The translations under genes and the position numbers were made by a program. Positions 35,664 to 44,480 of a stretch of DNA of 44,480 bases are shown here, piece by piece. Source of the DNA: a virus. The stretch spans positions 1-44,480 of the IMG/VR virus record IMGVR_UViG_3300048785_000093, one strand, 5' to 3'. Positions within the stretch are counted from its first letter, which is position 1. Every line of letters starts with the position of its first letter. A model generated the notes under the pieces. The model was not told the DNA's origin. It made no database searches and worked only from the letters and a program-made list of their open reading frames with translations.

Positions 35664-36860
35664 TCATAGTTGCTGTTGAACGATGGTGAGAACGGGCACC
35701 TGGTCGAGCACGGCCCAGTGCGCGGCGATGTCGTCGAGGTTCGCGGGCTTGAATTTGCAGACAAAGTGACTGTAGTGAGCTTCCGTAACCTTCACGCTGC
35801 TGTGGCGCAACCAGGTTTGGGCATCGTAAATCCCATATTTCATTGCGACCTGGCTGCCGGCATAGGCGCGCAAGGCGTGGTTTGTCTTTTGTGTCTGCCA
35901 GCCGAGGCCGCGCAGGAAGTCCGACACGCCCCGCGGAAGACCGTCGGCGCGATAACTGGCGCTGCCGAGGATAATAAAGTCCCCCGTAAGCCAGCCGCGC
36001 GCTATGGCCTTCGTCCGCATGATGGTGTAAAACGGATCCAACGCGCGGACTTGGACGAGCCCGGTCTTGTTTTTTACGTGCGCCTCGCCATCGAGCACAG
36101 GATAACCCTGCCGGGCGGTCCACCAACTCCACTTTGCTTGGGCCACTTCGCCAATGCGCAGTCCAAAGGCCAACTCATGGCCGATGGCAAGGAAGAGGTT
36201 GCGGTCGTCGAGCACTTCCCACGCAGCCAGCGTGCGCTGGATGATCTCGTCAGAGGGCGGATTGTATTCAATTCGTGGCAGGTCGGCGAAGGGTTTAACC
36301 GCAAGAAACTTGTCGAGGCTGCCAGGCAATTTCAACCGGCAGTCTTCCGTAAAATACTCCCGCATGTCATCGCTAAATACGCTGCGCGCCTGCCGCAACA
36401 CGGAATTTGACGTGCGCAAAACCCGTGTGTGATTCGCGTCAATCTGCTTGCCATTGGCGAAGGCTGCCTTTTGAAGCTTCCACGCACGCAAGAGATCATA
36501 AGTCATGGCACCAACGTCCAGAGCTTTTCCCATGTCCGCCATAATCTTGCCCAGGCAATTGATATTGCCGCGCCGTGTTTTTGGAGCGGGCCGCCTCCCT
36601 GGATAGCGCAGGTATGCCGCTTCGACCTCTGCCCAGGACGAATAGCCAACGTTTCGCATCCTGGTGCCATCCAACCGCTCGAACTGGCCGGCAATGATGG
36701 CTTCGGTGATTTCCTTGTGGAGCAGCCGCGCGCGCTGCTGCGCAATACTGGCATCATTTGTTTGGAGGCAACGGGGATAGACCACGCCCCGGAAGGCGAA
36801 TTTGAAATACCAAGGCGCGTCCCGGGTCTCGGAACGTTTGTGCAGGGCGAAAGTTTTCAT
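35664..36860 (-). CDS. int: Tyrosine recombinase / phage integrase
   Basis: Catalytic signature GLRIGE ... NHALRAYAGS ... WLRHSSVKVTEAHY (R, HxxR, H, Y). Adjacent to the tRNA-fragment attP. Confidence 0.9.
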   Translation of the reverse strand: MKTFALHKRSETRDAPWYFKFAFRGVVYPRCLQTNDASIAQQRARLLHKEITEAIIAGQFERLDGTRMRNVGYSSWAEVEAAYLRYPGRRPAPKTRRGNINCLGKIMADMGKALDVGAMTYDLLRAWKLQKAAFANGKQIDANHTRVLRTSNSVLRQARSVFSDDMREYFTEDCRLKLPGSLDKFLAVKPFADLPRIEYNPPSDEIIQRTLAAWEVLDDRNLFLAIGHELAFGLRIGEVAQAKWSWWTARQGYPVLDGEAHVKNKTGLVQVRALDPFYTIMRTKAIARGWLTGDFIILGSASYRADGLPRGVSDFLRGLGWQTQKTNHALRAYAGSQVAMKYGIYDAQTWLRHSSVKVTEAHYSHFVCKFKPANLDDIAAHWAVLDQVPVLTIVQQQL

Positions 36861-39361: not shown

Positions 39362-39706
39362 ATGATCTCGAAACTCAAAACGTCGGCTGCAAAAATTTTC
39401 CATTCCTTAAAGAGCGAACCGGGACCGGCACCGGTCCCGGGCAATGCGGCCGGCCGAAAAAACTCGCCGCCCCAAGGCGCAGCCGGGCTTATGGATCTGG
39501 TGGTGTGGAGTGTGCCGCCGGTGAACACGCGATTGCTGATATGCCACGCTCCCGGCGTCGACGGAAGCAATCCGATGAACCTGGTGAGCGTGACAGTGCG
39601 GGACAATTCCAGGTTCATGAAAAAAATGGCGCTCCGGGCCCGGCCCGTGAGCCAACAAAAATTTGACCTGGAAGGGCCACTGCCGCGCTGGAGGGGGCGC
39701 TGGTAA
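39362..39706 (+). CDS. Hypothetical protein (114 aa)
   Basis: More G/C at third positions and a more plausible sequence than the overlapping ORF 39325..39666. Confidence 0.45.
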   Translation: MISKLKTSAAKIFHSLKSEPGPAPVPGNAAGRKNSPPQGAAGLMDLVVWSVPPVNTRLLICHAPGVDGSNPMNLVSVTVRDNSRFMKKMALRARPVSQQKFDLEGPLPRWRGRW

Positions 39707-39707
39707 C

Positions 39708-40508
39708 ATGAGCGAACTTCTCCAGGGGAATGTGACGGTGAATAAACGTCTGCGCCGGCATCCGGTATGGCTGCGGGAACCGTTCAGCTACGGCCAGGCG
39801 TGGGTGGACCTGCTGTTGCTGGCCAATGACGCGCCACGGACGGCCACGGTGCATGGGGAGAGCTTTGTGATGGAGCGTGGGCAGCTTTGCTGGAGCCAAC
39901 GCGCGCTGGAACGGGAGTGGAACCGAAGCGGGGAGTGGGTAAAACGATTCCTAACCTTCTGCCAGGATGAGGCCATGCTAAAAATGGACGCTACGCCACG
40001 ACGAACGATCATTTCTATCCTGAATTATGACGCATACAACACGCTTTCCACGGTTACAGAACCGGAAACAGATACGGACGCAGGAACGGTTACAGAACCG
40101 GGACGGAATCTGGAAACTGGAAGGGGAAAGGGGAATCTGGAAAGGGGAACGCGCGCGGGGGACTTCTCAGAAGCTCCTGAAGAGGCCGAAATTTTGGAAT
40201 TCGCGGGCAGTTGGACGGGCGATACCGCGCGGGCAATTCCGGCAGGCGCGATGACCGAGGCCTGGGCACTGGAATGGATGAGCTGGCAGAAGACCTGGCT
40301 GGCTGACTGGCGCCGAAGGATGGTTCAGAGGTTTGTGAGCGAGTGGATTACGTGCCGGCCGCTGGCGAGGTTGATTTTGGAAAAAAATGGCGCGCCGGCG
40401 CCGGGGCTTTTGAAGCGGGAACGCGGGGAAATTTTGCAGGAATTGGAACTGGCGAAAAAAAACGGCGCGGCGACCGGACAACTTGAAAAGGAACTGACAA
40501 ACTCATGA
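39708..40508 (+). CDS. Replication initiator / replisome-organiser-like winged-helix protein
   Basis: FSYGQAWVDLLLLANDAPRTATVHGESFVMERGQLCWSQRALEREWNRSGEWVKRFLTFCQDEAML resembles DnaD/phage replication wHTH N-domains. Coupled to the DnaB gene. Confidence 0.55.
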   Translation: MSELLQGNVTVNKRLRRHPVWLREPFSYGQAWVDLLLLANDAPRTATVHGESFVMERGQLCWSQRALEREWNRSGEWVKRFLTFCQDEAMLKMDATPRRTIISILNYDAYNTLSTVTEPETDTDAGTVTEPGRNLETGRGKGNLERGTRAGDFSEAPEEAEILEFAGSWTGDTARAIPAGAMTEAWALEWMSWQKTWLADWRRRMVQRFVSEWITCRPLARLILEKNGAPAPGLLKRERGEILQELELAKKNGAATGQLEKELTNS

Positions 40509-41923
40509 ATGATTTCGTGGACAGACTCCCACCACATGACATCCCGGCGGAGCAGGGCGTCTTGTCCTGCTGCCTTGGCGGTTACATAAAAGCAATTGAA
40601 AGGGCGGATGAGTGTATTGCGGAATGTCAATCCGTCTTTGAAGAGGATGAGGTTTTTTACGACCTTCGGCACCAGGAAATCTGGCAGGCGATGCTTTATC
40701 TGAAGGAGAAGGCCGGCGAGTTCGACGTGATCACATTGCAGGCAGAATTGAACGCGCGCGGCAAGCTGGAGCAGGTAGGGGGGGCTCATTATCTATTTGA
40801 AATTCAAGAGGTGGCAGTTGCGCCGTCGTTTCTATCTCAATATCTGAACCTGGTTTGGGAACGTTACATGGCGCGGGTGAAGATTGCGAATGACACGGAG
40901 ATAAACAGCCGGATCATGGATAGCAACGGAGAGCTTACAGAATCCGGCATTGCGGTTATAAACGACCGGCATGAGCGATGGAAGAAGCTGCTGGAGCGCG
41001 GGGCGATAAGCCCTAAAAACCTGTGCGCTCCGGGGGATTTTGGGGACGCGTATTACAACGTATGGTTCAACCGCACGCGGGAGGATTACGGCTGGGAACT
41101 GCCATTCAAATTTCCGATGCGGATAAGGCCGAGCGAAATGACGCTGTTCACGGGGGACAACGGGAGCGGCAAGAGTTCGATGCTGGGCCAGATTTCCATA
41201 GTGATCGGGAAACAGCTTGAGAAGGGCCAGAAGGTGGTGATAGCGAGCATGGAAGTTCCTCCGGAAATTACGCTGTGGATCATGTCGCGGCAACTGTTAG
41301 GCGTGGGGAAACTGGAGAAGACAGCGGAGAACGAAAAGCGGATTGCCGACGCGCTGGCGTGGCTGAACGAGCGGATTTTGCTTTACAATTTTCTGGGGAT
41401 AACCGACTGGCGCGAGTTGCTGAACACGTTCACCTATGCCCGGGAACATTGCGGCGGGGCGGTGTTCATTGTGGACAGCGTAATGAGGATAGGGATACCG
41501 GACGACGATTACGCATTGCAGGGGCTCGTGGCGGCGCAGTTCTCGGATTTTGCGGTGAAGAAGGGGGCGCACGTGTTCCTGGTGGTGCATGAGAACAAGG
41601 GGGAAGGCCGGCAGAAGGACCGGGTGCGCGGGAGCAAGCAGTGGACCGACAACGCGGCGAACGTGTGCGCGATAAAGCGGAACGAGCTGAAGGGGGAGAA
41701 GATCGAGGAATGGAAACAGGAACTTGCCGCCGGCGAGCTGACGGAGAAAGAATTCGGCGACAAGATGGAGGGCGTGCGGAAGACGTGGGACAGCAAGTTT
41801 ATTTTAAGCAAACAACGCTGGCCGGGGAGCCAGCAGAACGCGAGCCGGTGGCTCTACTTCGACCGGGCCAGCCTGCAATTTCACGAATATCCCAACGAGG
41901 CGAACTTCAACTTTATTTTATGA
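40505..41923 (+). CDS. dnaB: DnaB-family replicative helicase
   Basis: N-terminal domain PPHDIPAEQGVLSCCL...FYDLRHQEIWQAM...VGGAHYLFEI. Walker A FTGDNGSGKSS and Walker B VFIVDSV. Confidence 0.85.
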   Translation: MNDFVDRLPPHDIPAEQGVLSCCLGGYIKAIERADECIAECQSVFEEDEVFYDLRHQEIWQAMLYLKEKAGEFDVITLQAELNARGKLEQVGGAHYLFEIQEVAVAPSFLSQYLNLVWERYMARVKIANDTEINSRIMDSNGELTESGIAVINDRHERWKKLLERGAISPKNLCAPGDFGDAYYNVWFNRTREDYGWELPFKFPMRIRPSEMTLFTGDNGSGKSSMLGQISIVIGKQLEKGQKVVIASMEVPPEITLWIMSRQLLGVGKLEKTAENEKRIADALAWLNERILLYNFLGITDWRELLNTFTYAREHCGGAVFIVDSVMRIGIPDDDYALQGLVAAQFSDFAVKKGAHVFLVVHENKGEGRQKDRVRGSKQWTDNAANVCAIKRNELKGEKIEEWKQELAAGELTEKEFGDKMEGVRKTWDSKFILSKQRWPGSQQNASRWLYFDRASLQFHEYPNEANFNFIL

Positions 41924-42495
41924 GCAAACAAAAATTTCCGTGCGCGGAAGCGCGGGGAGTGGCTTTGATGCTGCTGACAGACCTAATGCCGTATTGCGAG
42001 CCGGACAGGCTCACGATTGCCGGAAGCGTGCGGAGGATGAAGGCGGAAGTGGGCGACGTGGAGATTCTTTTTGTGCCGCGCGTGGGGACGGTGACGGGTG
42101 AAGGGGAAATGTTCGGAACGCCGAGCAATCTGGCGGAATCGGAAATAAACCGGCTGGTTAAAACGGGCATCCTGGCGCAGCGCCGGAATGCACTCGGCAA
42201 TACGACCTGGGGCTCACTGATCAAACTGGCGGTTCACTCAAAGAGCGGCATCCCGGTGGATTTGTTCACGGCGACGAAGGAGAACTGGTGGAATTACTTG
42301 GTGTGCCGGACCGGGCCGGCGGAAAGCAACATGGCGATTGCGAAGGCGGCGCGTGCGCGCGGGTTGAAATGGGAACCATATTCAAGCGGCTTTGTGGTGG
42401 GCGCAAACGACGGTCTGGACCGCCTGCTGGTGGAGAGCGAGGCGGATGTGTTTGAATTTGTGGGATTGAAATATCAAGAACCGGAAAAACGATAG
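41920..42495 (+). CDS. Minimal family-X DNA polymerase (Pol beta-like palm plus thumb only, 191 aa)
   Basis: IAGSVRRMKAEVGDVEILFVP parallels GSFRRG...GDMDVLL. PVDLFTAT...YLVCRTGPAESNMAIAKAARARGLKW parallels IDIRL...YFTGS..FN..MR..A. The C-terminal SEADVFEFVGLKYQEPEKR parallels SEKDIFDYIQWKYREPKDR. ATGA overlap with dnaB. Confidence 0.85.
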   Translation: MSKQKFPCAEARGVALMLLTDLMPYCEPDRLTIAGSVRRMKAEVGDVEILFVPRVGTVTGEGEMFGTPSNLAESEINRLVKTGILAQRRNALGNTTWGSLIKLAVHSKSGIPVDLFTATKENWWNYLVCRTGPAESNMAIAKAARARGLKWEPYSSGFVVGANDGLDRLLVESEADVFEFVGLKYQEPEKR

Positions 42496-44259: not shown

Positions 44260-44480
44260 GTGAGATATTGAACGTGGAAGGAGCACCGGTTGTTGCGGTG
44301 CAGCGCGGTGTTAGACCATGCTCGTGTGGGCAATGTGTCTCTTTGTGTGAACGCAATCCCGGATGGATGACTCCCGCCGAAGCCATCAAAGCAATCGCGG
44401 CTGGACATCGAAACCGCCTGATGCGCGACTGGCTCGAACCGAGCAGCGAAGTCGGGAATGATGAGCGCCTATATCTGCTG
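44256..44480 (+). CDS. 5' part of the junction-spanning YkgJ/UPF0153-like CxxCxxCC zinc/Fe-S protein. The true gene is 44256..44353 joined to 1..397, 164 aa.
   Basis: ATG at 44256 overlaps the upstream stop (ATGA). It reads [43 protein letters not shown] in frame with ORF 14..397 through the repeat. Confidence 0.7.
44354..44480. repeat. Terminal direct repeat, identical to 1..127
   Basis: Same comparison as for 1..127. Confidence 0.97.

Follow-up and report, generated by a model that had tools for sequence, protein, structure and literature searches.

A minimal family X polymerase core predicted in temperate phages, mostly of Verrucomicrobiota

A stand-alone family X core in a temperate phage

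The 191-residue product of an open reading frame (ORF) at positions 41920 to 42495, forward strand, of the virus record IMGVR_UViG_3300048785_000093 is, by sequence and predicted structure, a family X polymerase core, to which we refer as mini Pol X. The DNA analysed here (“the window”) spans all 44,480 nucleotides of this record, which is a complete IMG/VR virus record (CheckV 100%). Mini Pol X appears to be a catalytically competent, stand-alone family X DNA polymerase that has been cut down to the palm (approximately residues 1 to 120) and the C-terminal nucleotide-selection subdomain (approximately residues 121 to 191); the latter is the “thumb” of Pfam, and the “fingers” of the literature on Pol beta and on the Pol X of African swine fever virus (ASFV). 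Its motifs comprise an acidic triad (D46/E48/D114), a triphosphate motif (G35-S36-x-R38-R39) and a pocket motif (W123-W124-N-Y-L-V-C129-R130-T-G...N137). We consider it reasonably probable that mini Pol X works as a templated, distributive gap-filling accessory polymerase.

The C-terminal subdomain is recognized by the Pfam profile DNA_pol_B_thumb (PF14791; E-value 1.5e-7, 31.6 bits against a gathering cut-off of 25), with residues 127 to 191 covering profile positions 2 to 62 of 63. A single-sequence search of solved structures returned Thermus PolX, Pol lambda, Pol beta and ASFV Pol X weakly (E-values from 8e-4 to 0.2), and a profile built on 35 relatives gave full-length matches to Pol lambda (5e-9), Pol beta (3.5e-7) and ASFV Pol X (3e-7). 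The NCBIfam PolX model PRK08609 reached 17.6 bits against its cut-off of 426, and did so at profile positions 151 to 314 only. An earlier reading of this DNA, made from the letters alone and here called the original prediction, had proposed a minimal Pol X of two subdomains, collinear with Pol beta; every motif that it quoted is present and aligns with Pol lambda as claimed, including the C-terminal SE..VF...GL.Y.EP..R.

Predicted structure

The AlphaFold2 model of mini Pol X, calculated from a 35-sequence alignment, has a mean predicted local distance difference test score (pLDDT) of 95.9 and a predicted template modelling score (pTM) of 0.90. When it was compared exhaustively with 48,161 representative chains, the top of the ranking was made up of ten Pol X entries. 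The Pol X superpositions span model residues 1 to 191, with Z-scores of 16.2 to 17.5 for five different enzymes and root-mean-square deviations (rmsd) of 2.1 to 3.0 over 157 to 172 residues: these are Pol lambda (Z 17.5, rmsd 2.3, 167 residues aligned), the palm-thumb fragment of Pol beta (Z 17.1), Thermus PolX (Z 17.1, with 28% identity across the aligned part), Leishmania Pol beta (Z 16.7) and ASFV Pol X (Z 16.2), while terminal deoxynucleotidyltransferase (TdT) superposes at Z 16.1. Foldseek gave E-values of ~1e-12 to Pol lambda and Pol beta. The superposition on ASFV Pol X, which the original prediction had suggested as a check, aligns 164 of 176 residues and covers model residues 3 to 191, in agreement with the proposed two-subdomain layout. 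Nucleotidyltransferases that are not polymerases (MenT1, terminal uridylyltransferases, ANT(2'')) align over the palm alone and at Z-scores of at most 8.3, the value for MenT1; a placement with the MNT or CCA-adding type, the outcome that had been named as speaking against a polymerase, did not occur, and the Pfam scan of mini Pol X gave no match to NTP_transf_2.

Model residue 1 aligns to residue 143-144 of Pol beta, and residue 3 to the first residues of ASFV Pol X. Because the protein starts where the palm starts, the 8-kDa and helix-hairpin-helix subdomains are absent, and no longer fused relatives were found at E <= 1e-10. At the other end, nearly every member of the family stops 0-1 residue past the Pol X C-terminus.

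Active site and conservation

Residues were mapped by aligning the sequence to the solved Pol lambda chain (chain index + 240 gives the Pol lambda numbering), and the equivalence between Pol lambda and Pol beta residues is established. The pair G35-S36 aligns to the G-S of Pol lambda. In the acidic triad, D46 corresponds to D427 of Pol lambda, E48 to D429 (D192 in Pol beta) and D114 to D490; F116 takes the place of I492 (R258 in Pol beta), C129 that of Y505 (Y271), R130 that of F506 (F272), T131-G132 that of T507-G508, N137 that of N513 (N279) and A141 that of R517 (R283). Pol beta R258 and F272 are in turn equivalent to F102 and F116 of ASFV Pol X (PMC5330486).

Conservation was counted over 270 cluster representatives of the family. 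D114 is found in 269 of these; S36, R39, D46, F116 and T131 are each found in 268, G132 in 267, R130 and N137 in 266, and C129 in 239. The second catalytic acid is Glu in 267 proteins, the others having Asp twice and Gln once, so that the Glu pointed out in the original prediction proves to be a family constant. An independent set of 130 related DNA loci was drawn from IMG/VR and from GTDB genomes; 128 of its copies cover the triad, which is an intact D-E-D in 126, and all 128 have E48. Given that E48 is near-invariant across the proteins and constant across these independent loci, D-x-E is a fixed signature of the family and not a lesion. An all-acidic triad is classed as canonical (PMC12926913; PMC9226535), and triads that have lost their charge are associated with a loss of polymerase activity (PMC9226535). 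The residues for the two-metal reaction and for triphosphate binding are all present and strongly selected, and a dead enzyme is therefore disfavoured.

The same evidence bears on a further explanation, in which the protein would serve in defence or counter-defence as an effector from the Pol beta nucleotidyltransferase superfamily (MenT-, AbiEii- or CD-NTase-like), or would be a catalytically dead DNA-binding protein. The gene lies where temperate phages tend to collect accessory genes, at a variable boundary between modules, and its palm taken alone does resemble MenT1 (Z 8.3). However, the defence-system models of PADLOC gave no match for mini Pol X, the PolX-specific C-terminal subdomain is present and conserved, and the near-invariance of all catalytic and triphosphate-binding residues speaks against the dead-enzyme version; we regard this explanation as highly improbable.

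In Pol beta, residues R258, D192 and F272 form a switch that frees D192 to bind metal on closure of the enzyme. All three positions of this switch have been altered together in the phage family, to F116, E48 and R130 respectively, and from the alignment these may represent a re-wired version of the Pol beta switch.

A hairpin of 16 residues (residues 55 to 70) is mostly variable, and carries at its tip a conserved [DE]-[LM]-F. In mini Pol X this is E-M-F (residues 63 to 65, window positions 42106 to 42114), and across the 270 proteins the first position is D or E in 196, the second L or M in 236 and the third F in 228. As no conserved Gln goes with it, the tip is not a canonical clamp-binding motif, and could instead be a structural anchor or a docking site. 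Nor was a clamp-binding motif found elsewhere: there is no C-terminal tail, and a loose Q-L-x-L-F pattern occurs in only 3/270 proteins.

Comparison with known family X polymerases

ASFV Pol X (O174L, 174 aa; PDB 5HR9 and related; PMC5330486) is of similar size and likewise consists of the palm and the C-terminal subdomain, having neither the 8-kDa nor the helix-hairpin-helix subdomain and no proofreading domain. Both enzymes place a Phe two residues past the third catalytic acid, at the position of Pol beta R258 (F102 in ASFV and F116 here). The ASFV enzyme has a His115-Arg127 platform and a stack of Phe102 on Phe116 (PMC5330486), of which mini Pol X has the Phe102 equivalent. They differ in the catalytic acids (D49-x-D51...D100 in ASFV, D46-x-E48...D114 in mini Pol X), in the nucleotide gate, where His115-Phe116 of the ASFV enzyme is Cys-Arg (C129-R130) in the phage protein, and in the 16-residue hairpin with its conserved [DE][LM]F that distinguishes mini Pol X. 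The genomes differ as well: ASFV encodes its own AP endonuclease and ligase, whereas the phage with mini Pol X is temperate and without base-excision-repair partners. There is also no special sequence kinship between the two, since the family profile scores ASFV Pol X at 3e-7 and Pol lambda at 5e-9; “ASFV-like,” as the protein had been labelled, is thus apt for the architecture but not for descent, and from these sequence comparisons the reduction to two subdomains has probably taken place independently of ASFV Pol X.

The best matches of mini Pol X, in sequence and in structure, are to the core of eukaryotic Pol lambda and Pol beta (for example PDB 7M0E, 3LQC, 4RPX), with which it has in common the GS-x-RR, the acidic triad, the TG, the Asn and the C-terminal SE..VF..GL.Y.EP..R, as well as a short loop1, as templated synthesis predicts; it is without the BRCT, 8-kDa lyase and helix-hairpin-helix subdomains of these enzymes. 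The bacterial PolX groups have the same polymerase core fold (PMC12926913; PMC9226535). Mini Pol X can be told apart from each of them: PolX1 carries 8-kDa, helix-hairpin-helix and PHP domains and PolX2 an additional C-terminal helical domain, all of which mini Pol X lacks, and the PolX-like group is without the polymerase core that mini Pol X has.

In a 2026 census of bacterial polymerases, no PolX groups are described other than PolX1, PolX2 and PolX-like; hits under 200 residues were dropped (PMC12926913), which made the mini Pol X family invisible to it. In a review of phage polymerases, viral family X is represented by ASFV only (PMC8775771), and full-text literature searches turned up no account of a minimal Pol X from bacteriophages. 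ASFV Pol X has so far been treated as the singular “smallest” DNA polymerase; the same design is now found in hundreds of phage protein clusters, which have their own fixed signature of D-x-E, a Phe two residues past the third acid, and a Cys-Arg nucleotide gate. The family serves as a test, already run by nature, of what the binding of gapped DNA demands of a Pol X that has neither the 8-kDa nor the helix-hairpin-helix subdomain, and polymerases as small as these may prove useful as tools. The family also raises the question of why a gap-filling polymerase should be kept by temperate phages that leave replication to the host.

Proposed activity

For mini Pol X we infer DNA-templated gap filling of low fidelity. 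The enzyme would add a few nucleotides at a time onto a 3'-OH, at short gaps or recessed ends of double-stranded phage DNA, copying the template. D46, E48 and D114 would form the two-metal site, and G35-S36 together with R38-R39 would grip the triphosphate. The predicted protein is without a lyase domain, a proofreading domain or a clamp-binding tail, and the residues that check the templating base are unconserved: the equivalents of Pol beta K280 and R283 are variable or small across the family, with Ala or Cys at the R283 position. Mini Pol X would for these reasons be expected to be distributive and error-prone, as is the gap-filling enzyme ASFV Pol X, which is built from the same two subdomains (PMC5330486). 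Selection of sugar or base may be less strict with the small Cys at the place of the Tyr271 “steric gate” and the invariant Arg in place of Phe272, and the small gate residue in particular may relax the discrimination against ribonucleotides.

Several observations weigh against a templated gap-filling polymerase. The Pfam palm profile (DNA_pol_B_palm, PF14792) aligns to residues 9 to 100 with an E-value of 6.8e-4 and 20.3 bits, which is under its cut-off of 25; of the profile matches anticipated for this protein, the thumb was thus recovered above threshold and the palm was not, although the structural comparisons, at Z of about 17, do confirm the palm. No PHROGs family was found for mini Pol X. 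Few cellular PolX enzymes have Glu as their second metal ligand (PMC9226535), and Y271/F272 of Pol beta (Y505/F506 of Pol lambda) are replaced by Cys/Arg; the substrate could therefore differ from a plain deoxynucleoside triphosphate placed opposite a DNA template. In addition, no phage-encoded repair partner accompanies mini Pol X consistently.

An alternative that builds on these replacements is a nucleotidyltransferase with another substrate, one that would use ribonucleotides or modified nucleotides, tail DNA or RNA independently of a template, or prime a DnaB-driven fork, with D-x-E and Cys-Arg as the adaptation. The positions changed throughout the family are precisely those of a metal ligand (E48) and of the gate for sugar and base (C129, R130), and the phage has a helicase and a loader but no recognizable Prim-Pol. 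In Pol mu, too, a small steric-gate residue goes with ribonucleotide use. On the other side stand the marks of the template-independent Pol X enzymes TdT and Pol mu, namely an extended loop1 and, directly ahead of the catalytic acids, a His (PMC12828229). In the model of mini Pol X, strands 101-106 and 112-117 are joined at the place of loop1 by a turn of only 5 residues (107-111), and the position before D-x-E is G45, with Gly in 225/270 proteins and His outside the six commonest residues. As both marks are missing, templated synthesis is favoured over template-independent synthesis, and the option of a template-independent nucleotidyltransferase, which the original prediction had left standing, is disfavoured. 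N137 is also retained, in 266/270 proteins; its equivalent in Pol beta, N279, reads the minor groove of the incoming nucleotide. Finally, most carrier phages have no DnaB, so DnaB-tied priming cannot be general. We judge an activity on another substrate to be unlikely, and prefer templated gap filling.

Gene, phage genome and replication module

The sequence read directly shows the mini Pol X frame to run from an ATG at 41920 to a TAG stop at 42493-42495. A longer frame would begin with a GTG at 41641, inside the upstream gene, and is unsupported by relatives; the ATG at 41920 is preferred since many relatives begin within a few residues of M1 and since K3, A11 and A15 show conservation. The public gene call, which begins at M17 and gives 175 aa, has probably cut the protein short.

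An exact direct repeat of 127 nt is present at positions 1-127 and 44354-44480 of the window. This is the length expected of an assembler k-mer overlap, and behind the “direct terminal repeat” there is most likely a 44,353-bp genome that is circular or circularly permuted. The presence of an integrase of 398 aa (35664..36860, reverse strand; phrog_1, 4.1e-14) marks the phage as temperate. It also encodes an SU10-type capsid protein and a giant polyvalent protein.

Mini Pol X lies in a module in which an unknown 232-aa gene is followed by a DnaD-like loader, a DnaB-like helicase, mini Pol X itself, small unknown genes and DNA methylases. The first recognizable replication gene in this order encodes a DnaD-like helicase loader or initiator of 281 aa (39663..40508, forward strand; phrog_2514, 9.9e-14). 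The next encodes a divergent DnaB-like replicative helicase of 472 aa (40505..41923, forward strand) with a DnaB N-terminal domain (65 bits) and a RecA-type ATPase; this ATPase half matches AAA_25 and a PHROG “primase/helicase” family, and a six-frame search gave no match to DnaB_C (PF03796). The phage accordingly has the helicase and initiator of its own that had been predicted. Six-frame profile searches of the whole genome revealed no recognizable PolA, PolB, DnaE, Prim-Pol or ATP-dependent ligase, in keeping with the earlier statement that the phage has no recognizable replicative polymerase, and Pfam scans found no polymerase domain in the large ORFs of the window.

Phage replication would on this evidence be carried out by the host replisome, loaded through the phage’s own DnaD-like loader and DnaB-like helicase. 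Mini Pol X would act as an accessory enzyme of the early module, filling gaps that arise from replication, recombination or damage to phage DNA, and the nicks that it leaves would be handed to the host ligase.

The start codon of mini Pol X overlaps the TGA stop of the DnaB-like gene in an ATGA (41920..41923, forward strand; sequence read directly), which suggests translational coupling of the two genes in this phage.

Genomic neighbourhood across relatives

The genomic context of the family was sampled at the 130 related loci. No neighbour is conserved: among 889 flanking ORFs, the largest blastp cluster comprises 13 loci. The 97 sizeable immediate neighbours include DnaB (6), integrase (6), C5 methylase (4), terminase (3), RecT (2) and ParB (2), with RusA, Thy1, a dNMP kinase and others occurring once each. 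A second sample consisted of 46 related phage records, 21 of them >= 90% complete; PolA was searched over 45 of these, with the window genome checked separately. There were 0 records with PolA and 0 with PolB among the 46, while DnaB_C was found in 6, RecT in 7 and an ATP-dependent ligase in 1.

A “DnaB-coupled operon” as a family trait was considered and rejected, as DnaB accounts for only 6/97 neighbours and DnaB_C is found in only 6/46 records. The coupling to DnaB put forward in the original prediction takes the form of the ATGA overlap in this phage; it is not a rule of the family, and is particular to this phage and a few others. The phages with the closest DnaB-like helicase (56-59% identity; L002, L003 and L050) have a gene of 639-758 aa between the helicase and mini Pol X, so the adjacency is not kept even in near relatives; in L002 and L003 this intervening gene belongs to a cluster with a weak Terminase_6N match. 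In temperate phages that depend on the host replisome, the gene thus stands alone, as an accessory of the early region for replication and recombination.

Family size, carriers and hosts

A word-indexed search returned 549 relatives of 105-335 residues. The best 120 of these 549, with the window’s own entry set aside, have 173-278 residues (nearly all 183-221) and are 48-60% identical to mini Pol X. Where automatic names have been given, they are of the kind “DNA polymerase/3'-5' exonuclease PolX.” An exhaustive profile search over 1.84 billion cluster representatives found 347 clusters at E <= 1e-30, 3,482 at E <= 1e-10 and 8,756 at E <= 1e-3. The family thus comprises at least 347 clusters at 50% identity, and these come mostly from phages and prophages of Verrucomicrobiota; the nearest ESM Atlas clusters are 69-100% viral. 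Isolate phage genomes yielded only two distant relatives, both ~25% identical, and the family is for this reason essentially metagenomic.

The biological role of mini Pol X is the weakest part of our interpretation. Verrucomicrobiota is the label of 34 of the 49 bacterial genomes that carry a copy, and this distribution raises the possibility that mini Pol X substitutes for Pol I, carrying out short-patch gap filling (the maturation of lagging-strand fragments, or recombination patches) in hosts that lack a Pol I polymerase domain. The family A polymerase profile PF00476 has a match in only 182 of 401 sampled Verrucomicrobiota species genomes; an independent census likewise reports that many Verrucomicrobia are without Pol I, with only a FEN-like nuclease kept (PMC12926913); and none of the carrier phages has a PolA or PolB of its own. 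However, PolA is present in 14 of the 34 Verrucomicrobiota carrier genomes (41%) against 45% in the sample of the phylum, and so there is no enrichment of the gene in PolA-less hosts. The gene is moreover rare, being found in 2/401 sampled genomes, one of which is the carrier genome on which the sample was centred, and it is also present in phyla that possess Pol I. These genomes are metagenome-assembled, and a missing match is therefore a weak sign of absence. Substitution for Pol I in general seems to us improbable. The more specific proposal, that phages of Verrucomicrobiota bring their own Pol I replacement, with D-x-E and Cys-Arg suited to the nucleotide pool of the host and possibly to ribonucleotides, is slightly less probable again. 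An accessory role in gap filling alongside the host replisome is the one that we favour.

Variant members and distant relatives

Several proteins of the family depart from the common length. P0141 and P0186 have a low-complexity insert of ~240-250 residues, flanked by CxC...CxxC, between the third catalytic strand (DLF) and WWNYLVCRTG, and in P0157 a Cys-rich, zinc-ribbon-like insert stands ahead of the PIDLF strand. The family X core is fused at its N-terminus to a SWIM-like CxC...CxH zinc finger in P0127, and to an excisionase/MerR-like helix-turn-helix in P0269. The N-terminal extensions of 65-95 residues seen in P0065, P0137 and P0267 may be wrong start calls. On a Verrucomicrobiae chromosome (G087:C6:402611-403042; L123), one copy spans profile positions 3-143 only and is interrupted by an in-frame TGA; it probably belongs to a prophage in decay.

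One Pol X-like protein comes from an isolate, the 111-kb coliphage Escherichia phage EP_H11 (OP688485.1 37287-38045; L132:3647-4405). This 252-aa “hypothetical protein,” unannotated in GenBank, is 26% identical to mini Pol X, and has a conventional D-x-D, a His-Ser at the gate and an N-terminal extension of ~115 residues.

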